In this document: positions 5,929 to 60,866 of the stretch, in pieces
Layout: each line of letters begins with the position of its first letter
Numbering within the stretch: the stretch's first letter is position 1
Source of the DNA: Candidatus Kaiserbacteria bacterium RIFCSPHIGHO2_01_FULL_46_22
GTDB lineage: Bacteria > Patescibacteriota > Minisyncoccia > Phycocordibacterales > UBA918
DNA: 64,000 nucleotides
NCBI GenBank assembly: GCA_001779595.1
Contig: MFKO01000002.1
Coordinates: forward strand, 22,279 to 86,278
Direction of reading: 5' to 3'
The notes under the pieces: generated by a model
What the model was told of the DNA's origin: nothing
Databases searched by the model: none
The model's input: only the letters and a program-made list of their open reading frames with translations
Position numbers and translations under genes: made by a program

Positions 5929-6793
5929 AAAAGTTGTCACAGCAGGATTAATACTGCTAGTGATTTGTGTTGGTGTTTTCGTATTCTTCTTTAAGCAGAC
6001 GGAGGAATATATTCCTCAAGTTGTGAATGAACCAGAGGAAGCAATTACAGTTCGACACGAGGTTATAGGCACATCCGTTGAGGGTCGTACTATCGACGCT
6101 TACACTTATGGCGATGGTGAAACACATCTTCTGTTTGTGGGTGGAATCCACGGTGGGTACGAATGGAACAGTGTCGTGCTGGCATACGAAATGATGGATC
6201 ATTTTGAAGAAAATCCAGAGCTTATTCCGCAAAATGTGTCGGTCACTATTGTGCCCTCTGCCAATCCAGACGGTCTCTTTGCTCGGGTTGGTATAGAAGG
6301 CCGCATTACTTCACTCGACGTGCCAGCTGAAACAATAAGTGGCGAGGGACGGTTCAACGCCAATGATGTTGATCTTAATCGCAACTTCGACTGCAAGTGG
6401 CAGCCTGAAAGTATGTGGCGTGGAAAAGTTGTGAGTGCTGGAACAGCTGCATTCTCAGAACCGGAGGCGCAGGCTATACGTGATATCGTTTCTGCAACCA
6501 ACCCTGTGGTTGTGGTGTTCTGGCACAGTCAGGCAAATGCTGTTTACGCATCGGAATGTGAAGAGGGAATTTTGTCTGGCACGCGAGCGGCGATGAATGT
6601 GTATGCAACTGCCGCGGAATATCCGGCAGTGGATGTGTTTGACAGCTATCCGGTCACTGGCGATGCAGAAGGCTGGCTGGCGTCGATCGGCATACCGGCG
6701 ATTACAGTAGAATTGGCGACTCATGAAAGTACTGAATGGAGCCGGAATTTGGCCGGCGTGATTGCGCTAATAGCGTCTTATAAAGGAAACTAA
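5903..6793 (+). CDS. M14-family zinc carboxypeptidase-like protein, membrane-anchored (paralogue 2)
   Basis: Same motif set (GGIHGGYEWN, PSANPDG, DVDLNRNFDCKWQ); ATG at 5903 (MNLPTF...) chosen; overlaps the stop of paralogue 1 by ~26 nt in another frame. Confidence 0.55.
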   Translation: MNLPTFLNKKVVTAGLILLVICVGVFVFFFKQTEEYIPQVVNEPEEAITVRHEVIGTSVEGRTIDAYTYGDGETHLLFVGGIHGGYEWNSVVLAYEMMDHFEENPELIPQNVSVTIVPSANPDGLFARVGIEGRITSLDVPAETISGEGRFNANDVDLNRNFDCKWQPESMWRGKVVSAGTAAFSEPEAQAIRDIVSATNPVVVVFWHSQANAVYASECEEGILSGTRAAMNVYATAAEYPAVDVFDSYPVTGDAEGWLASIGIPAITVELATHESTEWSRNLAGVIALIASYKGN

Positions 6794-8617: not shown

Positions 8618-9166
8618 ATGACTTGGATTGAAAGACACTATAGGCTACTTGGGGTTATTGCAGTACTCGTTACCTTAAACGTTTTTTTATTTTTTCTAGG
8701 ACCGCAACAAGTAGTGGATAGTATCGGTGTTAGTAATACTTATCTTATAGTTTTTATTATCGCCACTGTGGGCGGGATGTCCTCCTTCACCGGCGCTACT
8801 TACGCAAGTGCAGTAATTACCTTTACTGCAGGTGGCGCCAATCCTTGGCTGATTGGTCTGTGTGGAGGGGTGGGCGTGTTCATTAGTGACAGTCTGTTCT
8901 ATCTGTTAGCTGAATATGGCCGTCGCGTGGTGCCTCACGACTGGAAGCCAACGCTAGAGAGGGTAGCGAGAAAGATGCGGGTGCTCCCCACCAAGACGGT
9001 GCTTCTTTTAAGCTACGTATATCACTCGTTGCCACTTCCAAGTGATCTGATGATGTTAGCGCTTGTGCTGGGTAAATATAGCTATCGCACAGTAGCGCCG
9101 GTAATTTTCTTGGCCGCGCTAACTTATTCAATTTTGATAGCCCACTTCGGCAGCCTGTGGTCCTGA
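8618..9166 (+). CDS. Hypothetical membrane protein
   Basis: Multiple hydrophobic helices; no recognised domain. Confidence 0.35.
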   Translation: MTWIERHYRLLGVIAVLVTLNVFLFFLGPQQVVDSIGVSNTYLIVFIIATVGGMSSFTGATYASAVITFTAGGANPWLIGLCGGVGVFISDSLFYLLAEYGRRVVPHDWKPTLERVARKMRVLPTKTVLLLSYVYHSLPLPSDLMMLALVLGKYSYRTVAPVIFLAALTYSILIAHFGSLWS

Positions 9167-9178
9167 TTGATCAGTGTC

Positions 9179-9207
9179 TTGACAAGATTGCAATAACGGG
9201 TTAATTT
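9179..9207 (+). promoter_or_regulatory. Sigma-70-like promoter (TTGACA-17 nt-TAATTT) preceding the GC-rich cassette
   Basis: TTGACA at 9179-9184, 17-nt spacer, TAATTT at 9202-9207; a perfect 8-bp hairpin (ctttggcg-acag-cgccaaag) follows at 9214-9237 in the 5' UTR. Confidence 0.45.
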
Positions 9208-9253
9208 ATTGTCACTTTGGCGACAGGCGCCAAAGAAGATGAGGAGTTCTTCA

Positions 9254-9655
9254 ATGACCAAGACCACGCTGCCCCTGTATGCACTTTTGATCTCGACAGT
9301 ATCGTCCGTCGATGGTTCGCCCAAGTCGCTCGAGGACGCGAAGTTCGCGGCGAAACTCGCCGCCAACGGCGAAATCCCGGCCGACAAGCTGCCCGAAGTT
9401 GCGAGTGCCATCGACCAGCAGCTCGGCATGATCGCCGGCGGTGACGGCATCCATGTATGCGAAGCTCACCAGATGCTGATGCAGGCACGCGCGAGCATCA
9501 GCGGCCAGGTCGATTTCTACAAGCAGCAGCTCGATATGTTCGACGATGACAACCAGCTTTCGCTCGGTATCGACAACAAGCTCGGCGCGGCCGCCAGCAT
9601 CATGCCGACCGCCGGCATGATCCGCGATGGCGCGGTGCATCATCCCGCCGAATGA
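9254..9655 (+). CDS. Orphan 133-aa protein encoded in a GC-rich island
   Basis: GAGGAG, 7-nt spacer, ATG; strongly GC-rich third positions unlike the flanks; no family recognised. Confidence 0.4.
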   Translation: MTKTTLPLYALLISTVSSVDGSPKSLEDAKFAAKLAANGEIPADKLPEVASAIDQQLGMIAGGDGIHVCEAHQMLMQARASISGQVDFYKQQLDMFDDDNQLSLGIDNKLGAAASIMPTAGMIRDGAVHHPAE

Positions 9656-9688
9656 TCGGTCCTTGACAGCATTCGCTGTCGCATAACA

Positions 9689-9728
9689 GAGCCTTTCCCG
9701 ATACGTTATCGGGAAAGGCTCACTTTTT
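9689..9728 (+). terminator. Rho-independent terminator
   Basis: gagcctttcccgata-cgt-tatcgggaaaggctc perfect 15-bp stem followed by TTTTT. Confidence 0.8.
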
Positions 9729-9763
9729 AAGTCATACACAAACAAAGGGAGGAGGTGTTTAAA

Positions 9764-9910
9764 ATGTCGCATCCCCGTAATAAGTCCGATGGCGAACCCA
9801 ATCGGGCGAAACGGCGAAAGAAGGAGTTGAAGGAAAAGCAGGGCGGAATCCTGCAGCCGCGTGGCGCACCCGTTGGCCCAGGCAAGAAAAGAAGGGTCAG
9901 GAAGCCTTGA
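9764..9910 (+). CDS. Orphan 48-aa Lys/Arg-rich small protein (MSHPRNKSDGEPNRAKRRKKELKEKQGGILQPRGAPVGPGKKRRVRKP)
   Basis: AAAGGGAGGAGG Shine-Dalgarno 7 nt upstream of the ATG; 17 of 48 residues are K/R; flanked by exact-stem terminators on both sides; not in the ORF track because it is under 60 aa. Confidence 0.35.
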   Translation: MSHPRNKSDGEPNRAKRRKKELKEKQGGILQPRGAPVGPGKKRRVRKP

Positions 9911-9916
9911 TCCACA

Positions 9917-9952
9917 GGCCCGATCGCGATAGCGATCGGGCCATATTTTTTT
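9917..9952. terminator. Rho-independent terminator (bidirectional position)
   Basis: ggcccgatcgc-gata-gcgatcgggcc perfect stem followed by TTTTTTT. Confidence 0.8.
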
Positions 9953-10100
9953 AATCTCTTTTTTCCTTGTTAAACATTTCTCCAATAATCCCAAACATCA
10001 CACCAAGGAAAATGAAGCTCACTACATTATCTGTGAGAATGCCCATTACAGCTCCCACAAATGTACCTATAGCTATTACTGATCCCCAAGGAAGATTCAT
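9951..10100 (-). CDS. Possible small single-TM protein
   Basis: MNLPWGSVIAIGTFVGAVMGILTDNVVSFIFLGVMFGIIGEMF; weak RBS. Confidence 0.25.
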   Translation of the reverse strand: MNLPWGSVIAIGTFVGAVMGILTDNVVSFIFLGVMFGIIGEMFNKEKRD

Positions 10101-10185
10101 ATAAAAAACTGTACGCCTTTTTAGGTGAAGGAATAATGTAGGTATTTCCAATTTGCATCCATTATTTTTGCGTTATTATTGAATT

Positions 10186-10584
10186 ATGGAAAAAATACCG
10201 GCTGATCTTAAAAAAGCGCTTGCATCAGCACAGAAAGCAAAAACTATCTGGGACGGTCTGACACCTATTGCCCGCCGAGACTTCATTAGCTGGATAGAAA
10301 GTGCCAAGCAAGTAGAAACACGTAAGCGTCGCGTTGACAGCGTTCCTTCGAGACTTATATCAGGTAAACGTCGTCCGTGTTGTTACGCGCTGGTGCCGAT
10401 GAATCTTTATAAAGCAATTGGACTTAGCGCAAAAGCGAAAACTACTTGGAAAGCGCTTACTCCGGACGAGCGCAGAAATTTCAATGATTTTGTAAATGGA
10501 GTAAAGAATAAAGATCTGCAGAGTGAACGAATAGCAAAGGTTATTTATATACTGGCCTCCGGCAAGAAAAGTCTAGTGAAGTAA
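10186..10584 (+). CDS. YdeI/OmpD-associated family protein (DUF1905-associated)
   Basis: Duplicated KAKTxW..LTP..RR.F..W motif characteristic of the YdeI-like family. Confidence 0.45.
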   Translation: MEKIPADLKKALASAQKAKTIWDGLTPIARRDFISWIESAKQVETRKRRVDSVPSRLISGKRRPCCYALVPMNLYKAIGLSAKAKTTWKALTPDERRNFNDFVNGVKNKDLQSERIAKVIYILASGKKSLVK

Positions 10585-10666
10585 TGATGAAGATGGTAAT
10601 AGAGATCAGTAGGGGTCGTCATCACTATTGTAGGGAGATAGATTACTAACTAAATAACACGATACT

Positions 10667-10900
10667 ATGTTAAAGAATACGCCAGCCGTATTCTTGGCGG
10701 CGATTGTGGCTGTAATCGTAATAACCAGTCCATTAGGCATCAACTATGCCTCGGCCCGTGCTGTCTCCGACCAAGATATCGACTCCCAAGAGGTTGTTGT
10801 TCGAACCGCATCAAGAGAGATGATTGAAGAGTACACACGGTTGTTGCTCTATATGATCATTTTTAAGTTGGAGACCAGAATAGCGGACCAGCAAAAGTAG
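10667..10900 (+). CDS. Hypothetical small protein with N-terminal TM
   Basis: ORF only. Confidence 0.25.
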   Translation: MLKNTPAVFLAAIVAVIVITSPLGINYASARAVSDQDIDSQEVVVRTASREMIEEYTRLLLYMIIFKLETRIADQQK

Positions 10901-14790: not shown

Positions 14791-15144
14791 ATGTTACCTG
14801 ATTGGACAGGAAAGGCTGTGGCAGGTGCCGCAGTGGGCGCCGTAGCTGCTATGATCGTCGGCTTCGCGTGGGGTGGTTGGATGACCAGTGGGTCGGCTGC
14901 GACGATGGCGAAAGCCGAATCGCAGAAGGCAGTAGTTGCTGCCCTTACTCCGATCTGCGTCAAGCAGGCGGAAGTTGATCCGGAACGCACGGTGAAGCTC
15001 GCGGCGTTGGGCGCGTTATCTTCGTACCAGCGGAGCGACGAGCTCGTGAAGACCGGCTGGGCAACAATGCCTGGTCACGACAAGCCGGCCGACAGGGCCG
15101 TCATCTCAGCTTGTCTCAACGAACTGGCCAAGAGTCTGAAGTAG
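14791..15144 (+). CDS. Orphan 117-aa protein in GC-rich island; N-terminal Gly/Ala-rich TM helix
   Basis: AAGGAG, 7-nt spacer, ATG; GC-rich; GKAVAGAAVGAVAAMIVGFAWGGW helix; no family recognised. Confidence 0.4.
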   Translation: MLPDWTGKAVAGAAVGAVAAMIVGFAWGGWMTSGSAATMAKAESQKAVVAALTPICVKQAEVDPERTVKLAALGALSSYQRSDELVKTGWATMPGHDKPADRAVISACLNELAKSLK

Positions 15145-15163: not shown

Positions 15164-15203
15164 GTGCGCCGTTCGGTTATACCGAACGGCGCATATTTTA
15201 TTT
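15164..15203. terminator. Rho-independent terminator (bidirectional position)
   Basis: gcgccgttcgg-ttata-ccgaacggcgc perfect stem followed by a T-run. Confidence 0.8.
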
Positions 15204-26087: not shown

Positions 26088-26212
26088 GAAGGACTGAGTG
26101 AATTGGTATCAGGTTGTTAAAGTAGCATTGACTTTAGTCATTTTTTGATTTAGTGTTCGTTACAGACCATTCCATGAGGAGTGGCAAATGCACCTAGAAA
26201 AGGAGAATATCA

Positions 26213-26593
26213 ATGGGGATACTTATTAGGAGGTCAGATGGACTTCGGATTCGTGTGACCGGCACCGGCGTGGATGGTGACCCGATCGGTGAGGTTATCG
26301 ACGATCAGGACAGCATCGTCACGGTCCGTCGCCTCAACTTGGCCGAAAGGGACGCCTACTACCGCGCCCAGAAAAGCGGGAAGATAGAAGTTGCGGTTAT
26401 CAAACACCACAACGGCGTCATCAAGACTCAGCGCTACTGGAGCCCGAGCAGCGGGAAACGTTCCGTTGCTCCGCAGAGATCTTCTCTGCGGAGCAACAAA
26501 TCCTCGACCACTTACAGGGTCGTCGAGATCGAAAGCCAGTTTTCTGTGCGGATCGGCACCAAGCACTTGGACTTTCCGAAGGGTCTCTATTGA
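26213..26593 (+). CDS. Orphan 126-aa protein in GC-rich island
   Basis: AGGAG, 7-nt spacer, ATG; GC-rich; contains a 15-bp-arm inverted repeat; no family recognised. Confidence 0.4.
   Translation: MGILIRRSDGLRIRVTGTGVDGDPIGEVIDDQDSIVTVRRLNLAERDAYYRAQKSGKIEVAVIKHHNGVIKTQRYWSPSSGKRSVAPQRSSLRSNKSSTTYRVVEIESQFSVRIGTKHLDFPKGLY
26465..26497 (+). repeat. Perfect inverted repeat inside the orphan ORF (15-bp arms, 3-nt spacer)
   Basis: gttgctccgcagaga-tct-tctctgcggagcaac. Confidence 0.8.
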
Positions 26594-28644: not shown

Positions 28645-30672
28645 TTAGATACCAATCAGTACTGGAATCACCATCGGAGTCTTGTTGGTCTTTTGCATTA
28701 GGAAGCCAGAAACAGTGTTGGAAAGTTCATCCTTCACATAATCTAGATCAAGAGGATGCATTTTCTCAGTATGCTTCTCAACAGTTTTTTTGATGAGAAT
28801 GCGGGCTTCTGATAGTAGCTGTTGGTTCTCACGCAAGTAAACGAAGCCACGAGAAATAATGTCAGGCGACTTACGCAGCTTTCCGTTCTTGGTATTGACG
28901 GTCGCGATGATAACGAACATACCGTCTTCAGCGAGTGTCTGGCGGTCACGCAGCACCACTTCCTGCTTGGTGCCCACTGTGAAGCCATCTACCATCACAA
29001 GTTCGGTAGGGGCCTTTGCTTTTTGTACGGTCATCTCACCATTCTTGAAGTCGATTAGGAAGCCGTTGTCTGGTACCACAATGTTTTCGCGAGGGAAACC
29101 GTTTTCGATTGCCGTATACATATGGCTCTTCAAGTGGTAATGGTGGCCGTGTACTGGGATCAAGAATTTCGGACGAATCGCCTGACGTACCCAATTTAGT
29201 TCACCAGCATTACCGTGGCCAGAGGAGTGCACTGCCGCGCTGCGGTAGTTGATAACCTTCACATTCTTGCGGTAGATATTGTCCTTTAATTTCTGAACAG
29301 CAATCTCGTTACCGGGAATCACCGATGAAGACAACACAATAGTGTCGCGTTCAGTTAGTGTGATCTGCTTATGCTTATCGGTTGCGATTCGCATCAGAGC
29401 AGCAAATTCCTCACCCTGCGCACCAGTGGAAAGGATAACGATGCGATCTGATGGGTAGTCGCCCATATCACCAGCATTGATAAATATTTTATCGTCAACT
29501 TCCAATAGTTTTGCTGTCCGAGCGATGTCTATGTTGGTTTTGATACTGCGACCTTCCAGTACGACTTTTTTGCCGTATTTCTCGCAGGATTTTATGATCG
29601 AAGTTAGTCGCTCAAATTGTGAAGCAAACGTACCAATGATCATACGGCCGGTACTGTTTTTGATGATGGCATCAAGATTTGAAAGAACCAAACCTTCCGA
29701 TGCAGAAAATCCCTCACGGTCAGCATTGGTCGAGTCACAAATCAAAACTAGGTTGTTGTTTTTGCCCATCTTCTCCCAGCTCTCACGTTCATCCAAATCC
29801 ACTTCACCATCTTCATGAGTAAGGCGGATGTCACCAGTGATTACAATATCGCCCTGGTTGGTCTCCACAGATACTCCCATCGCGTCAGGAATTGAGTGAG
29901 TGACAGGGAAGGTTTTGATTCTCATCTTGCCAACAGTGAAAGAATCACCCTCTTTGACAACGTGCATATCAACAGGGTCTAGATGAGGAAATTCTTCTTG
30001 ACGCTTCTTGATCATTAGTGAGGTCAAGTACTGGGTGTAAATTGGCGGGTTACCAATACGTTCCATTACAAATGGAATACCACCGATGTGATCGAGGTGT
30101 CCGTGAGTGACTACTAGAGCTCGGATCTTATGCTTTCGTTCCTCGACATACTGAGTATTAGGCAAGATGTAGTTGATACCTGGAGCGTTAGATTCTTCGG
30201 ATACGAATTGAAAACCAATGTCGAAAATAACCATGTCGTCCTTTGTTTCAACCACTGTCATGTTACGACCGATTTCTTCAACGCCGCTCATCGGAATCAC
30301 ACGTACAGTCTCGTCATCAGTAATTTCTGGCAGGCGAGGAGATTTCTCGTCAGTGACAGAAATACGGTGTTGAAGAGCCGGCGCTTTGTTGGAGCGGCGT
30401 TTGTTCGCAAAGCGAGAAGGACGGCGAGAGCCACCGCGTCGCTCGCCGGCACTGTCATTGGTGCGGCCAGCAGGGCGGGGTGCGGCGCTTTTTGTTTCTG
30501 TGCTGACACCAGTAGCACTACCTGTGCCTGTACCAGCTACATTGTTGCGGGAGGGCGCACCACGATAGTTACTGCGTGAGCCAAAACGGGTTCGGCTTCC
30601 GCCGCTACCACCAAATGGACGTCGGCGACTACCGCCTGTGGCCTTTGGTCCATTATTTTGATTATTATCCAT
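28645..30672 (-). CDS. rnj: Ribonuclease J (beta-CASP metallo-beta-lactamase) with ~110-aa Arg/Gly/Ser-rich N-terminal extension
   Basis: VTHGHLDHIGGIP HxHxDH motif and beta-CASP region; N-terminus MDNNQNNGPKATGGSRRRPFGGSGGSRTRFGSRSNYRGAPSRN... Confidence 0.8.
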   Translation of the reverse strand: MDNNQNNGPKATGGSRRRPFGGSGGSRTRFGSRSNYRGAPSRNNVAGTGTGSATGVSTETKSAAPRPAGRTNDSAGERRGGSRRPSRFANKRRSNKAPALQHRISVTDEKSPRLPEITDDETVRVIPMSGVEEIGRNMTVVETKDDMVIFDIGFQFVSEESNAPGINYILPNTQYVEERKHKIRALVVTHGHLDHIGGIPFVMERIGNPPIYTQYLTSLMIKKRQEEFPHLDPVDMHVVKEGDSFTVGKMRIKTFPVTHSIPDAMGVSVETNQGDIVITGDIRLTHEDGEVDLDERESWEKMGKNNNLVLICDSTNADREGFSASEGLVLSNLDAIIKNSTGRMIIGTFASQFERLTSIIKSCEKYGKKVVLEGRSIKTNIDIARTAKLLEVDDKIFINAGDMGDYPSDRIVILSTGAQGEEFAALMRIATDKHKQITLTERDTIVLSSSVIPGNEIAVQKLKDNIYRKNVKVINYRSAAVHSSGHGNAGELNWVRQAIRPKFLIPVHGHHYHLKSHMYTAIENGFPRENIVVPDNGFLIDFKNGEMTVQKAKAPTELVMVDGFTVGTKQEVVLRDRQTLAEDGMFVIIATVNTKNGKLRKSPDIISRGFVYLRENQQLLSEARILIKKTVEKHTEKMHPLDLDYVKDELSNTVSGFLMQKTNKTPMVIPVLIGI

Positions 30673-32782: not shown

Positions 32783-32965
32783 GTCGTTGACAACGATATC
32801 ATAGCGACTTAAAAACGGCAAACGAACAAGGGGTGGTCAAAATATACCCGGAAATATTGAGATCGTTGAGAGTTTATACAGTTTCAACTATAATCAGTGC
32901 GCTACGGTGGAGTGTGTCCGAAATGTCTTGGTCTACCGAGTATTAAAATTAAAACTTTTTTATCT

Positions 32966-33277
32966 ATGTCAGAAATCAATCTCAAGCCACTCGCTGATCG
33001 TGTTGTGGTCCGTCCGCTGACCGATGAAGAAGCGGGAAACGTGTCTGCATCCGGAATCATTATTCCTGATACTGCAAAGGAGGAAAAACCAGAGCAGGGT
33101 GTGGTAATGGCAGTAGGTGCTGGTAAGTGGGACGAAGATGGCGAAAAGCGTTTGCCACTCGATGTAAAGGTGGGTGACCGGATAGTGTTTTCGAAGTATG
33201 GCTACGACGAAGTGAAGTTGAGCGGTGAAAAGTACTATATTCTGTCTGAAACAAGTATCTTAGCGATTATTAACTAG
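32966..33277 (+). CDS. groES: Co-chaperonin GroES
   Basis: MSEINLKPLADRVVVRP...GDRIVFSKYG; directly upstream of groEL. Confidence 0.85.
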   Translation: MSEINLKPLADRVVVRPLTDEEAGNVSASGIIIPDTAKEEKPEQGVVMAVGAGKWDEDGEKRLPLDVKVGDRIVFSKYGYDEVKLSGEKYYILSETSILAIIN

Positions 33278-33304
33278 ACCTGAAAGTAAAACCAAATAAA
33301 AAAT

Positions 33305-34960
33305 ATGGCAAAGCAGGTTATTTTCGATGAAGAGGTAAAGAAGAAGCTCAAGGCTGGTGTTGATACTGTCGCCAATGCTGTGAAAGTAACACTGGGTCCG
33401 CGCGGCCGTAATGTGGTTCTTGATAAAGGTTATGGCGGCCCTACTATCACGAACGATGGTGTTTCGATTGCTAAAGAGATCACTCTCCGCGACAAATTTG
33501 AAAATATGGGTGCGGAGATTGTGAAGGAAGTTGCCAACAAGACCAATGAACAAGCTGGCGACGGTACTACTACTGCTACTGTTCTGACTCAGGCATTGGT
33601 ACACGAAGGTCTGCGGCAGACTTCGATGGGCCTTAATTCAATGGCGGTTCGTCATGGAATGGAGCATGCGGCCGCTGACGTGGTAGAGACTTTGCGTAAG
33701 ATGGCGACGCAGGTTTCAAATTCCGACGAGATCAAACAAGTCGCTACCATCTCAGCAGAATCAGCCGAGATTGGTGAGAAGATTGCTGAAACCATTGAAA
33801 AGGTTGGTAAAGACGGTGTGGTAACTGTAGAGGAAGGCCAGACAATGGGCATCGAAACTGAATACACCGAAGGAATGGAATTCGATAAGGGATTTGTCTC
33901 GGCTTATATGGTGACCAATACCGAGAGAATGGAAGCTGAGTACAAAGACGCGCAAATTCTGATTACTGACAAGAAGGTTTCCAGTGTTAAAGATATCTTG
34001 CCACTATTGGAAAAGGTGGCGCAGGCTGGCCGCAAAGAACTCGTCATTATTGCTGACGATGTTGATGGGGAAGCACTGACCACTTTTGTTGTGAATAAGT
34101 TGAAAGGTGGATTCTCAGTATTGGCTATCAAGGCCCCGGGCTATGGCGACCGAAAGAAAGAGATGTTGCAAGACATCGCGGCTTTAACTGGAGGTCAGTT
34201 GGTCAGCGAAGAACTTGGCCGTAAGCTTGAAAACACGGAACTTTCCGATCTTGGTCGGGCCGATCGTGTTACCTCTAATAAAGACAAAACCATTATCGTT
34301 GGTGGCGCAGGTGACAAGAAAGCAATCGAAGACCGGGTGGCTTCTTTGCGAAAGATATTGGAGGATACAACTTCCAAATACGATAAAGAAAAACTAGAAG
34401 AACGGATTGCAAAACTCACGGGCGGAGTGGCTGTACTTCGAGTTGGTGCTGCGACTGAGACAGAAATGAAGTATCTAAAGCTCAAGATCGAAGATGCTGT
34501 TAATGCTACTAAGGCAGCTCTCGAAGAAGGTATTGTGCCAGGCGGCGGTATTGCGCTCACTCGTGCCGCGGCGATCGTTGAAAAAGAAATTCTTGATAAA
34601 AAAGATCTAGAGCGTGAAGAGATGGTTGGTTACAACATTGTGCTAAAGGCACTTGAAGTGCCTTTGCGACAGATTGCAGACAACACCGGCAAGATTGACG
34701 GTGCCGTCGTGGTGCAAAAAGTTAAAGAATCCGGTGGCAACAGTGGTTACGATGCTTACAAAGGCGAGTTTGTGGAAGATATGATTGCAGCTGGCATCAT
34801 TGACCCAGTTAAGGTAGAACGCGCGGCGGTACAAAATGCTGTGTCGGCCGCTGCTATACTGCTCACTTCGGAAGTGGCGATTGCTGATGAGCCGGAAGAT
34901 TCTAAACATTCACATGGTGGAGGCGGTGGAGGAATGCAAGATATGGGTGGGATGTATTAA
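33305..34960 (+). CDS. groEL: Chaperonin GroEL
   Basis: [10 protein letters not shown]...[11 protein letters not shown]...; C-terminal [14 protein letters not shown] tail. Confidence 0.95.
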
Positions 34961-40758: not shown

Positions 40759-40928
40759 GCAACCGATCGACTTAATAAAAAGGCCGGCAACCTGCGGGGT
40801 GGAGACTTCTGCGACTCCATCTCGCGGGCTGCCGGCTTTTTTGTAATTTAGTGGACAATACGATGATTTTAATGTAGGATTTCGTGCACTTACAGCTGTG
40901 CCCGAGGGCACTTTTTCTTTTTTTGATT

Positions 40929-42710
40929 ATGGAAATACGCAATATCGCAATCATCGCTCACGTGGACCACGGTAAGACAACCCTTACTGATGCTTTAATG
41001 GAGCAGACCGGCGCCCGTGCCGAAGGACAGTCAATGGACTCAAACGCTCTTGAAAAGGAACGCGGCATTACTATTTATGCCAAAAACACCTCCATTGAGT
41101 ACAAGGGTACCAAGATCAACATCGTTGACACTCCAGGCCACGCCGACTTCGGCAGTGAAGTGGAGCGTGTTTTGCGTTCGATCGACTCTGTTTTGCTCGT
41201 AGTGGACGCTCAGGAAGGTCCGATGCCACAGACACGTTTCGTACTTAAAAAGTCGCTTGAGCTTGGTCTTAAGCCGATTGTGGTCATTAATAAGATCGAC
41301 AAGCCTGCCGCTAACCCACATCACGCTGAGGAGCAGGTTCTCGAACTCTTCCTAGAACTTGGCGCAAATGATGAACAGTCCAATTTCACTACCGTATTTG
41401 CTATCGGACGTGAGGGTATCGCTAAGCGGTCTCTTGAAGACGATTCAAAGGACCTTTCACCACTCCTAGACGTCATCTTGGAGCAGGTACCAGCAGCTAA
41501 GGCCTACGTAGAGGGCGAGCCGCTAGCAGCTCAGGTCTTCAATCTTGGTTACGACAACTTCCTCGGCCGTTTGGCAGTAGCGCGTGTTTACAGCGGAAAG
41601 TTGAGCAAGGGACAGACTTTGTTTGTTGCTGCGGAAGGAAAGGAAAAATGGAGTAGCAAGGTAGTTAAAATTTCTACCTTCAAAGGCACTAGTCAGGTGG
41701 AATCCGATACCGTTTACGCTGGTGATATCGCATTGATCGCTGGTTTTTCTAAAATCGACATCGGTGAGACATTGGTGGACAACGAAGCGACTGAACCGCT
41801 AACTGCCATTCACGTTGATGAGCCGACTATCGGCCTCAGCTTTATGCCAAATGCTTCGCCTTTCGCTGGGCGAGAAGGTAAGTTTGTTACTGGTCGCCAG
41901 ATCAGAGAGCGTCTTGAAAAGGAACTCGAAATTAACGTGGGTCTTAAAGTAGACTTTTCAAAGGGAGACTTTTTTGAAGTATACGGACGTGGAGAAATGC
42001 ACATCTCTATCTTGTTGGAAAACATGCGTCGAGAAGGTTACGAAATGGCCGTGTCTCAGCCGCAAGTAATCATTAAGGAGGAAAACGGACAAAAAACTGA
42101 ACCGTTTGAAGAAGTAGTTGCTGATATTCCGTCTGAATTCCAGGGACCGGTAATCGAAAAGTTATCGAACCGTGGTTTCGTGATGCAGAATATGATCACT
42201 CACGAAAATCAGGTTCGTTTGGTCTTCGTTGGTCCTACACGAGGTCTTCTTGGTTACAAAGGTCAGTTCATTATCGACACCAGAGGTGAAGGAATTTTGG
42301 CTTCACAATTCGTTGGCTTCCGTCCATACGCTGGTGAGATCAAGAAGCGTCAGGCTGGCAGTATGGTTTCAATGACGGCAGGTAAAGCACTTGGATTTTC
42401 ACTTTGGAATTTGCAAGATCGCGGACAGCTCTACATCAACCCAGCCACAGAAGTATATGAGGGTATGGTGATCGGAAATACTTCTAAGGGTGAAGAAATG
42501 ATGGTAAACCCGACTAAGGGTAAGCAGCTCACCAACATGCGCTCTTCGGGAGCTGATGAGGCAATCAACCTTACTCCACCACGAATCCTTAGTATTGAAA
42601 TCGGTTTGGAAACAATGGCTGACGATGAGTATTTGGAAGTAACACCACAAAGTGTACGTTTGCGTAAAGCTCTTTTGAAAGAGAGTGAGCGTAGGAAGGG
42701 TGGTAAATAA
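40929..42710 (+). CDS. typA: Translational GTPase TypA/BipA
   Basis: [23 protein letters not shown]1 motif, [13 protein letters not shown]. Confidence 0.9.
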
Positions 42711-51895: not shown

Positions 51896-53155
51896 GTGAA
51901 TCTTTTTGGATTGGTGGATTGTAATAATTTTTTCGTCTCGTGTGAGCGGTTGTTTAGACCTGACCTAATTGGTCGGCCGGTAGTCGTACTCGGTAGTAAT
52001 GATGGCGTAGTGGTGTCGCGAAGCGAAGAAGCCAAAAAGTTTGGCGTGCCGATGGGCGTTCCGTTTTTTAAAGTGAGAGATATTGTGAAAGATAATAAGA
52101 TCACTCTTTTCTCATCCAACTTTGAACTATATCGAGATGTGTCCGACCGGATTATGTTTGTGCTCCAAGAAGAGCTTGGTGAAATTTACCAATACTCTGT
52201 CGACGAAGCGTTTTTTCAGTTTACAGAGAAAAGCAGCGCCGTGGCGAAAATACAACTCACCGATTTAAAACAGACTATTGAAAAGAAAATTGGAGTACCT
52301 GTCTCGCTTGGTGCTGGCAAAACCATGACAATCGCCAAGTACGCTAGTGAAATGGAAAAAAGAAAAAGTGGCGTATGTGTTCTTTCAGGCACGGCGTGGC
52401 AAAAGTTAACGCCGCAGATACCACTTAGTGAAATTTGGGGCATTGGTGGGAAAACCTCCGTTAATATGCGTAATCATAAACTCAACTTCGTAGCGGATTT
52501 GTTATCCGCACCTGAAAGTTTCATTAAGGAAGAGTATGGCGTGCACGGGCTCCGACTTCGTTCAGAATTGTCCGAAAATCCTGCCCATCAACCTACTGAA
52601 CGTGAAGGACTGCAGAAAAGTATTATGCATACTCGGTCGTTTTCTAAAACGACAGAATCCTTAGCCGCCTTAGAAACTGCTGTGACATTCCATATTGAGC
52701 GGGCGGCCGAAGAACTGAGAGCTATTGGAGGAAAGGCTGGGTCACTTTCGGTGCAAATTCAAACGAGCCGTCATGGTGATTGGCTTCTTCAGAGCGGTAG
52801 ACAAGAAATAATTCTGCCAGCACCGATGTCTGACACCAGAACTTTGTTGCGCTATGCGTTGTCTTTGACAAAAGCTCTGTATCGCAGTGGGGTGCCGTAC
52901 AAAAAAGCTGGTGTCGTGTTGGGCCGCATCATATCCGAAAATTTTGTACCGGTATCACTGTGGGATCAGTATGAAAAAACTGATGAAGATGCGCTGCTGA
53001 TGAATGTTATAGATAATCTAAATGCAGAATGGGGGAATGACGCAGTAACTTTCGGTCGTCTGAAAAAAGGGGGTCAACTGGATCACGATCAACATCGTTC
53101 ACCCAGGTACACTACTAGCTGGAATGAAGTGCGAAAAGTTGAAAGAAAAATATGA
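51896..53155 (+). CDS. umuC: Y-family DNA polymerase (UmuC/DinB-like)
   Basis: MNLFGLVDCNNFFVSCERLFRPDLIGRPVVVLGSNDGVVV... Y-family N-terminal signature; immediately downstream of umuD'. Confidence 0.8.
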   Translation: MNLFGLVDCNNFFVSCERLFRPDLIGRPVVVLGSNDGVVVSRSEEAKKFGVPMGVPFFKVRDIVKDNKITLFSSNFELYRDVSDRIMFVLQEELGEIYQYSVDEAFFQFTEKSSAVAKIQLTDLKQTIEKKIGVPVSLGAGKTMTIAKYASEMEKRKSGVCVLSGTAWQKLTPQIPLSEIWGIGGKTSVNMRNHKLNFVADLLSAPESFIKEEYGVHGLRLRSELSENPAHQPTEREGLQKSIMHTRSFSKTTESLAALETAVTFHIERAAEELRAIGGKAGSLSVQIQTSRHGDWLLQSGRQEIILPAPMSDTRTLLRYALSLTKALYRSGVPYKKAGVVLGRIISENFVPVSLWDQYEKTDEDALLMNVIDNLNAEWGNDAVTFGRLKKGGQLDHDQHRSPRYTTSWNEVRKVERKI

Positions 53156-56930: not shown

Positions 56931-57473
56931 ATGTTAAAGCTGAACAAATATGAAGCGGCGGGTATAGGTTTGTCGATCGGTGCGATGGCCCTAGCTCTGT
57001 TCGTTATGCGATTTGACGGTACTTTAGAAAATCAAGTTGCTCTAATAGATCGTTTGTTTGCTGAAAATCAGACAGCTGGAGTTGTCTTTTCCGAAGGGGG
57101 AGTTGAGGGCGCACCAGCTGCACTAGCGAGCGCTATGTCTGGCAATCGAGTTGCGAAGCTTGTTGTTACTGACGTTAAGATTGGTAGCGGCGATGCTGTG
57201 GCAAAAGGAGACACTGTTGAGGTGAACTTCATCGGTACTTTGCAGAACGGTCAGGAGTTCGACAACACTTACAAAAAGGGTGAGACTTTTACATTCACCG
57301 TAGGTGATGAAAAAGTAATCAAGGGTTGGGAAGAAGGTGTGGTTGGTATGCAGTTGGGTGGTCAGCGTATCTTGGTCATTCCATCGGAAATGGCCTACGG
57401 CAGTGAAGGTTATGGCCAGATCCCAGGCAACGCCACTGTTGTCTACGCAATTGAACTGGTTTCTATTAAGTAA
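56931..57473 (+). CDS. FKBP-type peptidyl-prolyl cis-trans isomerase, membrane-anchored
   Basis: GDTVEVNFIGTLQNGQEFDNTYKKGETFTFTVGDEKVIKGWEEGVVGMQLGGQRILVIPSEMAYG. Confidence 0.8.
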   Translation: MLKLNKYEAAGIGLSIGAMALALFVMRFDGTLENQVALIDRLFAENQTAGVVFSEGGVEGAPAALASAMSGNRVAKLVVTDVKIGSGDAVAKGDTVEVNFIGTLQNGQEFDNTYKKGETFTFTVGDEKVIKGWEEGVVGMQLGGQRILVIPSEMAYGSEGYGQIPGNATVVYAIELVSIK

Positions 57474-58681
57474 TGCAGCAAACTCCGATCTCATTTGAAA
57501 TAGTGAAGCGTCAGCCCGGGTCTATGGCCCGGGCTGGTGTTATTCATACTCCACACGGCGACATTGAAACGCCGGCCTTTGTGACTGTTGGTACCAAAGC
57601 GACAGTAAAGGCCCTCAAGTCAGAAGATTTGAAAGACTGGGTAGGTGCTCAAGTTGCCTTAGCTAATACCTATCATCTTTATTTGCAGCCAGGTCACGAA
57701 ATAATTAAAGAAGCTGGAGGATTGCAGAAATTCGCCAATTGGGATTTGCCGACCATGACCGATAGTGGTGGCTTTCAAGTGTTTTCGCTTGGAGCGGCTT
57801 TTGGTAAAGGTGTTACCAAATTTGCCAAAGGCGAAGTGGAAGATGATGAAAAGCCACACGTGCATGGACTCAATGTGTATTCACGAGCCTTGGCAGAGAG
57901 TCACGGCAAACTTTGTGTAGTTGATGAGGAAGGTGTGACGTTTACTTCGCATCACGACGGTTCTATGCATCGCTTTACAGCTGAGCGTTCGATTGAAATT
58001 CAGCACGCAATCGGTGCGGATATCATTGTTGCTTTTGACGAATGTACCAGCCCGACTGCAGATTTTGATTATCAAAAAGAAGCGATGGAGCGTACGCATC
58101 GTTGGGCAAAGCGCTCAATAATGGCTCATAAGCAAAACTACGAAGCCCTAAAGAAACAAGGGCTTTACGGTGTGGTGCAAGGCGGACGCTTTCTAGACCT
58201 CCGTCTAGAAAGCGCCCGTACCCTCGCTTCTATGGACTTCGACGGCTTCGGCATTGGTGGGAGTTTCTCCAAAGAAGACTTAGGTGATGCTCTTAAGGTT
58301 GTGAATGAAAACCTGCCGGAAGATAAGCCACGGCACTTGCTTGGTATCGGTGAGCCAGAAGATATTATGGAGGGAGTACGACTCGGTTGCGATACTTTCG
58401 ACTGTGTGGCGCCTACGCGTATTGGACGCACTGGTACTATCTATATCCATACCAGAGACGGAATTAAAAAAGTCAGTATCAAGAAAAGCGAATACGCACG
58501 GGACTTCAGTAAGTTGGACGAGGGTTGTGACTGTATGGTTTGCCAACGTTATACAAAGGCTTACGTATCGCACTTAGTACGCTCAGGTGAGATTTTAGGT
58601 GGCCATCTTTGTTCGATTCATAATCTTTATACGATAGTCAATTTCACCAAGCAGCTGCGTGAGAGTATTTTGCGCTCCTAA
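57473..58681 (+). CDS. tgt: Queuine tRNA-ribosyltransferase
   Basis: ...LANTYHLYLQPG..., catalytic region, zinc site CDCMVCQRYTKAYVSHL. Confidence 0.9.
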   Translation: MQQTPISFEIVKRQPGSMARAGVIHTPHGDIETPAFVTVGTKATVKALKSEDLKDWVGAQVALANTYHLYLQPGHEIIKEAGGLQKFANWDLPTMTDSGGFQVFSLGAAFGKGVTKFAKGEVEDDEKPHVHGLNVYSRALAESHGKLCVVDEEGVTFTSHHDGSMHRFTAERSIEIQHAIGADIIVAFDECTSPTADFDYQKEAMERTHRWAKRSIMAHKQNYEALKKQGLYGVVQGGRFLDLRLESARTLASMDFDGFGIGGSFSKEDLGDALKVVNENLPEDKPRHLLGIGEPEDIMEGVRLGCDTFDCVAPTRIGRTGTIYIHTRDGIKKVSIKKSEYARDFSKLDEGCDCMVCQRYTKAYVSHLVRSGEILGGHLCSIHNLYTIVNFTKQLRESILRS

Positions 58682-58773: not shown

Positions 58774-58807
58774 GCGGGCAACTCAAATTGCCCGTCTTTT
58801 TTTATTG
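58774..58807 (+). terminator. Rho-independent terminator
   Basis: ggcgggcaa-ctcaaa-ttgcccgtc (one G.U pair) followed by TTTTTTTTAT. Confidence 0.75.
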
Positions 58808-58832
58808 CCCAACTTCGGATACACTGAGGCCA

Positions 58833-60866
58833 ATGAAATTTGAGCTCGCAACTGACAAAACACCAGCTGGTGATCAGCCACAAGCTATAGAGAAGCTAAT
58901 CGCTGGATTGAAGGCTGGAGCAGAACACCAGACCCTACTTGGTGTGACTGGCTCCGGTAAGACCTTTACCGCGGCCAATGTGATAGCTTCTGTGCAGAAG
59001 CCTACTTTGGTGATCGCCCATAACAAAACTTTGGCTGCTCAGCTAGCGCAAGAATATCGTGACTTTTTTCCTAATAACGCAGTGCACTACTTCGTTTCTT
59101 ATTACGACTACTACCAGCCGGAAGCCTATATGCCGGTGTCCGACACCTATATTGAGAAAGAAGCTCAAATCAATAAGGAAATCGACCGCCTACGTCATGC
59201 TAGTACTCAGGCATTGCTGACGCGCAAGGATGTAATTATCGTAGCTTCGGTTTCTTGTATCTATGGTTTAGGTTCACCGATTGAGTACGAAAAAGTACAT
59301 AAAAAATTTGAGAAAGGTTTTAAAACCAATCGAGCAGAACTTTTGCGCACTTTAGTTTCGATGTATTTTGAACGAACTACCGCTGATCTGATGCCGGGCC
59401 ATTTTCGCGCTGTCGGCAACACTGTGGAAATAATGCCCACCAACGAGAAGGCAATCTATCGCCTAAGCTTTGATGGTGATGTCGTCTCCAGTATCACTAA
59501 GATTGATGCAACGACGCGAGCTATCATTGAAGAATCGGAAAACTTTTTTCTTTTTCCTGCTAAGCATTTCGTTACTCCAGAAGCAGAAAGAGCACGAGCG
59601 ATTGAAGACATTAAGTTAGAACTAGACGAGCAGCTAAAGAAATTTAAGAAGGAAGAAAAGCTGTTGGAAACAGAGCGTTTAAAGCGTCGTACTGACTACG
59701 ACCTCGCAATGATTCGAGAGATCGGTTACTGCAATGGCATTGAGAACTACTCAAGGCATTTCGATGGACGACAGGTGGATGAACCGCCTTATACCTTGCT
59801 CGATTATTTCCCACACAAAGCGGATGGATCTGCAGACTTTCTAACCATTATCGATGAGTCGCACGTAACTATTCCTCAGATCGGTGGTATGTACGCTGGA
59901 GACCGCGCGCGCAAGGATACTTTGGTTGACTATGGTTTTCGCTTGCCAAGTGCAAAAGATAACCGACCGCTGAAGTTTGATGAGTTTGAAAAACGAGTTG
60001 GTCAGCGTATTTACACCTCTGCAACGCCAGGCAAATACGAGTTTGAGAAAGCAGAGACCACGGGATTTCCGATGGTTGAGCAAATCATCCGCCCGACTGG
60101 CTTGGTAGATCCAGAAATTGACCTGCGACCGATTGTTGAGAAAGGCAGTTACCCCGGACAGGTAAAGGATTTCATTGAGGAAGCTGAAAAAATAATCAAA
60201 GGGGGAGCACGCGTGCTTACTACTGTACTCACCAAACAGATGGCTGAAGACTTGGCTGAATTCCTTGAAGGAAAAGGAATCAAAACCAAATACATTCACA
60301 GCGATGTTGAGACATTGGAGCGAATTGAAATTTTGACAGACTTCCGCAAAGGAGTGTTTGACTGTCTCGTTGGAGTGAACCTACTTCGTGAAGGACTCGA
60401 CTTACCAGAGGTTGAGCTTGTGGCAATTCTAGATGCTGACAAGACGGGTTTCTTGCGCAGTGAGACGGCCTTGATTCAGACTATCGGTCGTGCCGCACGT
60501 AACGTAAATGGTCGCGTGATTCTATATGCTGACGAAATCACAAAAGCTCTAGAATTTGCGATAGGCGAGACTAATCGCCGCCGTAGCATCCAGCTGGCTT
60601 ACAACAAAGAACACGGCATTACACCGCAAACCATCAAGAAAGAAATAAAATCAATTGCCGATCAACTCCGAACTGTACACGACGAAACTGTTCATACGCT
60701 GCTTACTGTAGATATGGATTTGTTTAAAAAGAATCCTAAGAAAGTTCTGAAAGAAAAACGCCAGCAAATGAACGAGGCGGTTTCTCTTCTCGACTTCGAA
60801 ACCGCCGCCATCATTCGAGACGAGATCAAAGTTTTGGAGGAGTCTGCCAATCGCAAGAAAAAATAA
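58833..60866 (+). CDS. uvrB: Excinuclease ABC subunit B
   Basis: ...LLGVTGSGKTFTAANVIA... Walker A, helicase motifs, C-terminal UvrB/UvrC-interaction helix; ATG at 58833 preferred. Confidence 0.9.
   Translation: MKFELATDKTPAGDQPQAIEKLIAGLKAGAEHQTLLGVTGSGKTFTAANVIASVQKPTLVIAHNKTLAAQLAQEYRDFFPNNAVHYFVSYYDYYQPEAYMPVSDTYIEKEAQINKEIDRLRHASTQALLTRKDVIIVASVSCIYGLGSPIEYEKVHKKFEKGFKTNRAELLRTLVSMYFERTTADLMPGHFRAVGNTVEIMPTNEKAIYRLSFDGDVVSSITKIDATTRAIIEESENFFLFPAKHFVTPEAERARAIEDIKLELDEQLKKFKKEEKLLETERLKRRTDYDLAMIREIGYCNGIENYSRHFDGRQVDEPPYTLLDYFPHKADGSADFLTIIDESHVTIPQIGGMYAGDRARKDTLVDYGFRLPSAKDNRPLKFDEFEKRVGQRIYTSATPGKYEFEKAETTGFPMVEQIIRPTGLVDPEIDLRPIVEKGSYPGQVKDFIEEAEKIIKGGARVLTTVLTKQMAEDLAEFLEGKGIKTKYIHSDVETLERIEILTDFRKGVFDCLVGVNLLREGLDLPEVELVAILDADKTGFLRSETALIQTIGRAARNVNGRVILYADEITKALEFAIGETNRRRSIQLAYNKEHGITPQTIKKEIKSIADQLRTVHDETVHTLLTVDMDLFKKNPKKVLKEKRQQMNEAVSLLDFETAAIIRDEIKVLEESANRKKK

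Follow-up and report, generated by a model that had tools for sequence, protein, structure and literature searches.

Does a sharply bounded GC-rich interval in an otherwise low-GC genome mark a freshly inserted piece of foreign DNA, or a gene that has long been part of its host lineage? We addressed this question for a locus in a 64,000-nucleotide stretch (hereafter the window) of contig MFKO01000002.1 from Candidatus Kaiserbacteria bacterium RIFCSPHIGHO2_01_FULL_46_22. A first-pass annotation, made from the letters of the window, had read the locus as a two-gene cassette of a 133-codon open reading frame (ORF133) and a 48-codon one (ORF48), inserted between housekeeping-style genes. Our analysis suggests that positions 9179–9728 form a single autonomous, monocistronic gene unit of a clade-restricted family, which probably produces a long-lived and strongly translated mRNA. 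The unit would comprise a sigma-70-type promoter, a 5′-proximal stem-loop, a strong Shine–Dalgarno (SD) sequence, the 133-residue ORF, and a long-stem intrinsic terminator.

A protein family apparently confined to Kaiserbacteria-like bacteria

A word-indexed protein search with ORF133 returned the query as its sole match; it missed the family and was therefore misleading. Relatives were recovered in two ways, by fetching loci through the neighboring VTT protein and by an exhaustive HMMER scan of 1.84 billion representatives. The scan revealed eight further proteins of 123–142 residues with 30–50% identity, in addition to one spurious repeat protein, and every context examined is Kaiserbacteria-like. 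The fetch through VTT gave L004, from Candidatus Kaiserbacteria bacterium RIFOXYB1_FULL_46_14 (VTT 69% identical), and four metagenome contigs.

The two proteins of the supposed cassette had been described as unlike any recognized family, and this is borne out: Pfam, NCBIfam, PHROGs, and PADLOC give nothing for either, and for ORF133 the PDB sequences do not yield a match. Searches of phages and plasmids by blastn and tblastn were likewise negative, as were scans of viral contigs with the leader pattern and the protein; the family alignment is too divergent for a pattern scan. A lead from one member to the TerB-like helical domain (PF05099) was not reproduced, and no profile match was obtained. 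ORF133 belongs to a small, unnamed family that appears confined to Kaiserbacteria-like candidate-phyla bacteria.

In a sister species, represented by L005 and L008, a 133-residue homologue with 50% identity is located directly after the VTT gene, whose product is 79–81% identical to that of the window. For the window and L008 copies of ORF133, the ratio of nonsynonymous to synonymous divergence (dN/dS) is 0.37, with a dS of about 1 and saturated synonymous sites (proportion of synonymous differences, pS, 0.57). An orthologue at the same site at this divergence does not support a recent insertion, and ORF133 seems to have reached the site earlier than the separation of the window lineage from that of L008. 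The recent foreign insertion that the first-pass annotation implied is thus at odds with a family found only in Kaiserbacteria-like genomes and often in conserved synteny.

The gene is absent from the same site in L004, L006, and L007 (VTT 69% identical) and present in the closer L005 and L008. In L004, the VTT gene is followed after 150 bp (6558–6709) by a homologue of the 77-residue gene of the window (orf77), with no ORF133 gene between them. The first-pass annotation had proposed to check whether the interval is empty in syntenic relatives; it is empty in L004 but not in L005 and L008, which partly bears out the ground for refutation named there, conservation of the interval in related genomes.

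The neighborhoods of the other relatives recur, with YkuD, Peptidase_C39_2, DsbB, TspO, MgtE, Fpg, glutaredoxin, S30AE, Fmt, and Def; the YkuD and C39_2 proteins of L009 are 67 and 42% identical, respectively, to those of the Kaiserbacteria contig L004. Four genomes (L009, L015, L016, and L019) carry the family gene immediately upstream of a convergent (TspO-)MgtE-Fpg-glutaredoxin cluster. In L013 it is found upstream of YkuD, on the opposite side of YkuD-C39_2. The Fpg gene is split into two ORFs in L016 (6856–7732; GCA_040903565.1) and intact in the near-identical L017 (5410–6273; GCA_040879215.1), a difference that is probably due to a frameshift or an assembly error.

A conserved leader with a putative RNA hairpin

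The region upstream of the family gene is unusually well conserved. Without exception the nine members have TTGACA, and 14 nt further on eight of them read (G/A)GT-TAnnnT; the ninth, L015, has a −10 hexamer of TATTTG. In the MAFFT alignment A3, positions G22, T23, T24, A25, and T29 are invariant, with a one-base gap in L015. The composite motif TTGACA-N14-RGTTAnnnT occurs a single time in the 64 kb of the window, even with one mismatch allowed. It is present once in each gene-bearing locus except L015, where there is no match, and is absent from the loci that lack the gene.

The locus had been credited with complete consensus expression signals. The elements are indeed present at the claimed coordinates, namely TTGACA-17 nt-TAATTT, the hairpin, GAGGAG-7 nt-ATG, the terminators, and both ORFs. 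The word consensus, however, does not apply, since the −10 hexamer agrees with TATAAT at three of six positions and the promoter was not listed by a consensus scan. Despite this weak −10 hexamer, promoter function is supported by the conservation of TTGACA in nine of nine members and, in eight of nine, of GTTA and of the T that closes the hexamer.

A hairpin forms in the minimum-free-energy (MFE) folds of all nine leaders and starts 6–10 nt past the −10 hexamer (8 nt in the ORF133 leader), close to the predicted transcription start site (TSS). Whole-leader MAFFT alignments (A3 and A4) mis-registered the 3′ arm, and a hairpin-only alignment (A5) was used instead. In this MAFFT alignment of nine hairpins with a 9-bp helix, 86.4% of the cells are paired, compared with 72.6% in shuffled alignments (reached by 0 of 500). 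Double-sided changes affect six of the nine pairs (2 of 500 shuffles), and the covariation score is 0.423, versus 0.186 after shuffling (0 of 500). Controls with slid partners gave at most 49% pairing, and a manual alignment that allows one-sided bulges has 73 of 77 cells paired. The covariation indicates that the leader hairpin is under structural selection, with structure rather than sequence being maintained.

The same palindrome could in principle be a DNA operator for a dimeric repressor and no RNA element. As in the CIRCE/HrcA system, a 9-bp inverted repeat follows the −10 hexamer and precedes the SD sequence, and in several lineages the repeat (CTTTGGCGG/CCGCCAAAG) shows better conservation than the protein does. 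Unlike CIRCE operators, the ORF133 repeat has a spacer of 3–8 nt, bulges on one arm only, and extensive compensatory change, including C-G to G-C swaps among the six stem positions that change on both sides. Such changes in stem and loop are neutral for an RNA helix, but alter the spacing and identity of the half-sites for a dimer, which argues against an operator. The variable loop, the one-arm bulges, and the swaps thus appear to fit an RNA helix better than an operator for a symmetric dimer, and we consider an operator quite unlikely.

Following the hairpin, a purine-rich stretch leads to GGAG-TTCTTC-(A/G)-ATG, in which GGAGTTCTTC(A/G)ATG hardly varies among members. In the MFE folds of most members, the SD sequence is predicted to pair weakly with TTCTTC; as the sequence is near-invariant, covariation is uninformative here. 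At the 3′ end, every member has an 11–21-bp GC-rich stem followed by a T-run. An Rfam search at the gathering threshold identified only a tRNA in the whole window, and permissive E-values gave only noise for 9100–10200 (E above 1). Readings of the hairpins as integron attC sites or CsrA sites were rejected on sequence.

Composition of the locus and the question of import

The sliding-window analysis confirms the compositional anomaly noted in the first-pass annotation. The 400-bp GC peak of 0.6175 is the maximum of the window (mean 0.455, standard deviation 0.033), and the step in GC is abrupt at both ends of the interval. ORF133 has a GC content of 0.61, and its GC content at third codon positions (GC3) is 0.79, compared with 0.44 ± 0.067 across 69 ORFs of the window, a difference of about five standard deviations. 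Its codon choice (CTG/CTC, GCC/GCG, GGC, ATC, and CAG) is like that of high-GC organisms.

This deviation is shared by the whole family. GC3 ranges from 0.67 to 0.93 in all members, while the surrounding host DNA has a GC content of 0.43–0.57. In hosts of 0.43–0.46 GC, the GC3 of the family gene exceeds that of MgtE and Fpg by 0.3–0.4; in the 0.56-GC hosts L015 and L019 the values are 0.83–0.87 for the family gene and 0.71–0.79 for MgtE and Fpg. The high GC3 characterizes the family whatever the host and is no mark of recent import into this genome.

Expression-linked codon bias is ruled out as its source by the GroES/EL genes of the window, which have a GC3 of 0.44, equal to that of bulk genes. 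A selected, specific fold of the coding sequence was also rejected, with synonymous-codon shuffles giving a mean z of −0.7. The control genes with ordinary GC3 (about 0.43–0.44) are GroES/GroEL (32897–34960, +), BipA/TypA (40884–42710, +), a Y-family polymerase (IMS; 51896–53155, +), tRNA-guanine transglycosylase (57473–58681, +), UvrB (58788–60866, +), and RNase J (28645–30672, −).

Two explanations are left for the high GC3: gene-specific selection on GC-rich synonymous sites, or an origin in higher-GC members of the clade, with transfer or slow amelioration. As the window and L008 copies split at a dS of about 1, a decay of GC3 from about 0.9 to 0.67–0.79 is arithmetically possible, and either explanation may apply.

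A second GC-rich gene of the window, 5 kb from ORF133, provides a contrast. ORF117 (14791–15144, +) encodes 117 residues with an N-terminal transmembrane helix and has a GC content of 0.61, a GC3 of 0.67, an AAGGAG motif, and a terminator at about 15166–15194. It separates an MGMT-like gene from a convergent methyltransferase gene; in L004 these two genes lie 12 bp apart, without ORF117. Homologues with 44–52% identity are found on alphaproteobacterial plasmids (Sinorhizobium, Rhizobium, Paracoccus, and Roseibium). By sequence, ORF117 looks like a genuine horizontal acquisition and serves as a positive control for import.

A third GC3-rich ORFan (26128–26593, +; 126 residues, GC3 0.69) has a leader of ORF133-like layout and unrelated sequence, with a promoter-like TTGACT-17-TAGTGT at 26128–26156, a 7-bp hairpin at 26167–26184, and AAGGAG. 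The protein has no Pfam, NCBIfam, PADLOC, or plasmid match.

Could ORF133 and ORF48 have arrived recently as a foreign GC-rich cassette, in a genome that takes up genes such as ORF117? The locus is the strongest GC and GC3 outlier of the window, its codon usage resembles that of high-GC organisms, and the interval is empty in L004. Nevertheless, we regard such an acquisition as very unlikely. No homologue was detected outside Kaiserbacteria-like contexts among the 1.84 billion representatives, nor in plasmids, phages, or viral contigs, and in the sister species an orthologue occupies this very site, at a dS of about 1. In addition, the low-GC promoter and leader are conserved together with the gene across nine lineages, and ORF48 does not accompany ORF133. 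A recently transferred gene was rejected on the same grounds: the composition deviates, but relatives from a donor clade are lacking and all hits come from Kaiserbacteria-like contexts.

A self-expressing module of the phage moron type, spread or repeatedly exchanged by transfer between Kaiserbacteria-like genomes (such as from higher-GC lineages, to which its composition is almost native, to lower-GC ones), would be less improbable, although we still judge it rather unlikely. Like phage morons, ORF133 is a single ORF of deviant GC that has a promoter and a terminator to itself and lies between genes which adjoin each other in a relative, and the promoter, leader, and terminator accompany the gene everywhere. 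The position differs between genomes, even inside one neighborhood (L013 versus L009); GC3 is about 0.8–0.9 whatever the host, and slightly above that of neighboring genes in the 0.56-GC L015 and L019. The matrix of protein identities is incongruent with those of MgtE and Fpg, and 3′ of the gene lies a foreign-DNA hotspot, with DUF4189-like and Piscirickettsia/Legionella-like genes in L008. Unlike a moron, however, ORF133 is chromosomal, and its synteny is conserved across several genomes: four keep the gene upstream of convergent (TspO-)MgtE-Fpg-glutaredoxin, and its place in the window is identical in L008. Next to the gene we saw neither a transposase or integrase nor flanking repeats or phage genes, and there is no match to PHROGs, phages, or viral contigs.

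The coding strand

The minus strand carries a 247-residue ORF opposite ORF133, which the first-pass annotation had attributed to GC richness. The GC contents of the three codon positions of ORF133 (0.63, 0.41, and 0.79) follow the pattern of a plus-strand gene, whereas the antisense ORF peaks at its first position (0.67). ORF133 and ORF48 share a reading frame 510 nt apart, with TGA at 9653 and TAA at 9728 between them, so that one codon-aligned antisense ORF spans both.

In each of the nine members, the codon-aligned antisense frame is stop-free over 83–100% of the gene, as would suit a real or additional overlapping gene that GC3 richness keeps open. However, this frame can be closed only by a sense TTA, CTA, or TCA codon, of which ORF133 has none and each family gene 0–1, and the openness follows from this scarcity of A-ending codons. 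Internal antisense stops are present in three members and the extents of the frame vary; in the window, the antisense ORF crosses two terminators and two SD sites. Amino-acid identity is higher in the sense than in the antisense frame for 33 of 36 pairs, the third sense codon position is the least conserved, and synonymous sites are saturated. The sole Pfam match of the antisense ORF is sub-threshold. The comparison thus agrees with the earlier attribution: the antisense ORF is a shadow and the plus-strand ORF the real gene, a coding minus strand being extremely improbable.

ORF48 and a gene-gain/loss hotspot

ORF48 was presented as the second gene of the cassette, a view that the comparison does not uphold. 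It is absent from L005 and L008, which keep ORF133 at the same site and have other genes in its place, and from beside every other family member. Searches of a database of 5.8 billion protein clusters, of viral contigs, and of all fetched loci gave no homologue, and ORF48 is uncalled in both assemblies that cover it (L001 and L002). It lies behind the 15-bp-stem terminator 1, with no promoter of its own between this terminator and its SD-like sequence. Its ATG follows AAAGGGAGGAGG by 8 nt and not by 7 nt as had been annotated. GGGAGGAGG is unique in the window; yet GGAGG with a start codon and 30–50 open codons is common by chance, and the basic character of the predicted protein stems from a purine-rich stretch. 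ORF48 is at best a young orphan, and may well be a doubtful or very young ORF in lineage-specific filler, without a partnership with ORF133.

The first-pass annotation had likened the pair, as speculation, to nucleic-acid-binding, toxin–antitoxin, or phage-derived systems. This finds no support in PHROGs, PADLOC, Pfam, NCBIfam, or viral, phage, and plasmid searches, and ORF133 is acidic. A toxin–antitoxin pair was rejected because ORF48 occurs beside no other family member, a 15-bp-stem terminator separates the two ORFs, and no known toxin or antitoxin domain is present.

The 220 bp downstream of the ORF133 unit (ORF48 and terminator 2) are separate, lineage-specific filler in a hotspot of gene gain and loss. 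The hotspot spans the region from VTT to the 77-residue gene, corresponding to 9166–10667 in the window, 480–2816 in L008, and 6558–6709 in L004. In the window it contains ORF133, the ORF48 segment, a Gly-zipper gene (minus strand), and OmdA; in L008 it contains the ORF133 homologue followed by a DUF4189-like gene, a 251-residue gene, and a Gly-zipper gene, all three on the minus strand. The two GC-rich genes that replace ORF48 in L008 (1147–2391, minus strand) encode signal-peptide-like N-termini. The first product has 122 residues and a weak DUF4189 match, and the 251-residue product shares about 37% identity with hypothetical proteins encoded by plasmids of Piscirickettsia salmonis and Legionella. 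Beyond the hotspot, the window has YbjQ, and L004 a leucine-rich repeat protein and, by eye, a cupin-sized ORF.

Predicted structure of ORF133

An AlphaFold2 model built from the nine-sequence alignment has an overall predicted local distance difference test (pLDDT) score of 75.7, and of about 90 over residues 1–100. It comprises helices at residues 8–17, 23–38, 43–60, and 66–99, and a disordered tail (residues 100–133). A single-sequence model was poor (pLDDT 51), and a Foldseek search with it is meaningless; the domain of the alignment-based model gave no specific structural or family match. A signal peptide or double-glycine leader at the N-terminus was considered and rejected. The motif G-(S/A/T) is present in only four of nine members, and helix 8–17 (pLDDT above 90) packs into the domain, which makes a cleaved signal peptide unlikely. 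The protein is acidic, with 17 Asp and Glu versus 9 Lys and Arg residues. Our best guess from the model is that ORF133 is most probably a soluble, abundant protein that acts through protein–protein contacts.

Assembly support and locus anatomy

An assembly chimera, with DNA from a GC-rich organism joined into a low-GC contig, could produce an abrupt GC step at both ends. The same protein is nevertheless encoded on contigs from three samples and assemblers: ENA ERZ27254767 (64 kb), JGI 3300025323 (17.7 kb), and ENA ERZ28564264 (712 bp). These independent assemblies are 100% identical to the window in their overlaps, and they span the left junction (9170) in three of three cases and the right junction (9955) in two of three. 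The VTT-to-gene junction also recurs in the sister species, where the promoter is homologous. These comparisons exclude a chimera, the probability of which we take to be negligible.

The 712-bp scaffold of the third sample (L003, corresponding to window 9030–9741) ends 13 nt past terminator 1. Its end coincides with the point where the window and L008 lineages begin to differ, and may reflect strain heterogeneity there or simply low coverage.

The features of the locus are summarized in Table 1. Terminators 1 and 2 are the two best terminator-like sites in the 7–12 kb region of the window, and the T-run of terminator 2 extends into the stop codon of a convergent gene, that of the Gly-zipper protein (9951–10151, minus strand). 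A second perfect TTGACA is present at 9664–9669, 9 nt past the ORF133 stop codon; it has no acceptable −10 hexamer at 15–18 nt, is not kept in L008, and is probably due to chance. The neighbors of ORF133 are genes for a trypsin-like protease, a VTT/DedA-like membrane protein, a Gly-zipper protein, and OmdA. The VTT/DedA-like, Gly-zipper, and OmdA genes are accessory, and not housekeeping-style as had been stated.

Table 1. Coordinates of the features at the ORF133 locus (window numbering)
Feature	Position	Strand	Remarks
−35 box TTGACA	9179–9184	+	read in sequence; invariant in 9/9 family members
−10 region GGT-TAATTT	9199–9207	+	hexamer TAATTT 9202–9207; 17-nt spacer from −35; family consensus RGT-TAnnnT
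RNA hairpin, 5′-proximal (putative)	9215–9235	+	8-bp perfect stem CTTTGGCG (9215–9222)/CGCCAAAG (9228–9235), loop ACAGG
Shine–Dalgarno GAGGAG (9241–9246) with conserved spacer TTCTTCA	9241–9253	+	7 nt to ATG 9254
ORF133, 133 residues	9254–9655	+	small acidic, predicted helical protein of an unnamed family apparently restricted to Kaiserbacteria-like bacteria
Terminator 1, intrinsic	9689–9728	+	15-bp perfect stem 9689–9721, 3-nt loop, then ACTTTTT (T5)
SD-like AAAGGGAGGAGG 5′ of ORF48	9744–9755	+	8 nt to ATG 9764
ORF48, 48 residues, Lys/Arg-rich	9764–9910	+	unconserved, coding status doubtful; within variable GC-rich segment
Terminator 2, intrinsic	9917–9952	+	11-bp stem 9917–9942, then T7
Antisense ORF, 247 residues	9251–9994	−	codon-aligned shadow of ORF133, not a gene

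A working model for the ORF133 message

Stem-loops at the 5′ end and terminator hairpins at the 3′ end are established stabilizers of mRNAs (review PMC7509114). In our working model, transcription would start about 7 nt past the −10 hexamer, placing the hairpin at the 5′ terminus of the transcript. There it may shield the mRNA from 5′-end-dependent decay, for which the window encodes RNase J. The long stem at the 3′ end would protect against 3′ exonucleases, and the strong SD sequence, loaded with ribosomes, could add further protection. The outcome suggested by this anatomy and by the known mechanisms would be a long-lived, heavily translated message. For the protection of mRNAs by 5′ stem-loops, the review mentioned above cites Emory 1992 and Hambraeus 2002.

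The anatomy is similar to that of the 5′ stem-loop stabilizers of E. coli ompA, B. subtilis aprE, and the ermC type: a stable hairpin near the predicted 5′ end has a strong SD sequence close behind it, the host encodes RNase J, and a long terminator hairpin is present at the 3′ end. The ORF133 hairpin differs in having an unrelated sequence, in being bound to one narrow candidate-phyla family, and in its absence from Rfam; its TSS is predicted. With regard to the protein, ORF133 resembles the lineage-specific hypothetical (DUF-type) proteins of Patescibacteria in being small, limited to one clade, and without a Pfam or NCBIfam model, and in having a helical fold that becomes confident only once family sequences are supplied. 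It differs from them in a GC3 above that of every host and in the conservation of its leader. An integron gene cassette was rejected, as ORF133 has its own conserved promoter and both hairpins have perfect stems with T-runs behind them and lack a GTTRRRY core. A literature search on GC content and horizontal transfer in Kaiserbacteria and on promoters of Patescibacteria returned nothing pertinent.

Several observations weigh against a resident gene with a stabilized message. The TSS position, the mRNA half-life, and the abundance of the protein are all inferred, and in E. coli terms the −10 hexamer is a weak one. The shuffles of the coding sequence gave no specific fold, and GC richness could aid RNA stability through bulk composition only. 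The syntenic site of L004 lacks the gene, whose position varies elsewhere, next to VTT in the window, to MgtE in L009, L015, L016, and L019, and to YkuD in L013, such that the unit may be mobile. Protein identities within the family show no parallel with those of MgtE and Fpg, a comparison that is uninformative with a protein this diverged and saturated. Finally, a dS of about 1 allows partial amelioration of GC3 from about 0.9 down to 0.67–0.79.

Implications

The locus suggests that a sharp GC island with perfect-looking signals may be a clade-restricted family and not a fresh foreign insert, with ORF117 showing the contrast within the same window. For the biology of candidate phyla, it adds an unnamed family with a confident predicted fold, and a hairpin with covariation that is absent from Rfam. 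The motif TTGACA-N14-RGTTAnnnT is rare direct evidence on the form of promoters in Kaiserbacteria.

A bolder proposal, to which we give little credence, is that the 5′ hairpin, the strong SD sequence, an AU-depleted body, and the long 3′ stem have been selected together as a hyper-stable message in AT-leaning genomes, or that the gene is a chromosomal moron hopping within the clade. If the message is hyper-stable, a long-lived mRNA would supply one abundant acidic protein, perhaps in starvation or host-detached phases of these episymbionts. On either of the two readings, a gene-specific elevation of GC3 against the mutational bias of the host would be a mark by which a new class, regulatory or mobile, could be recognized in candidate-phyla bacteria.

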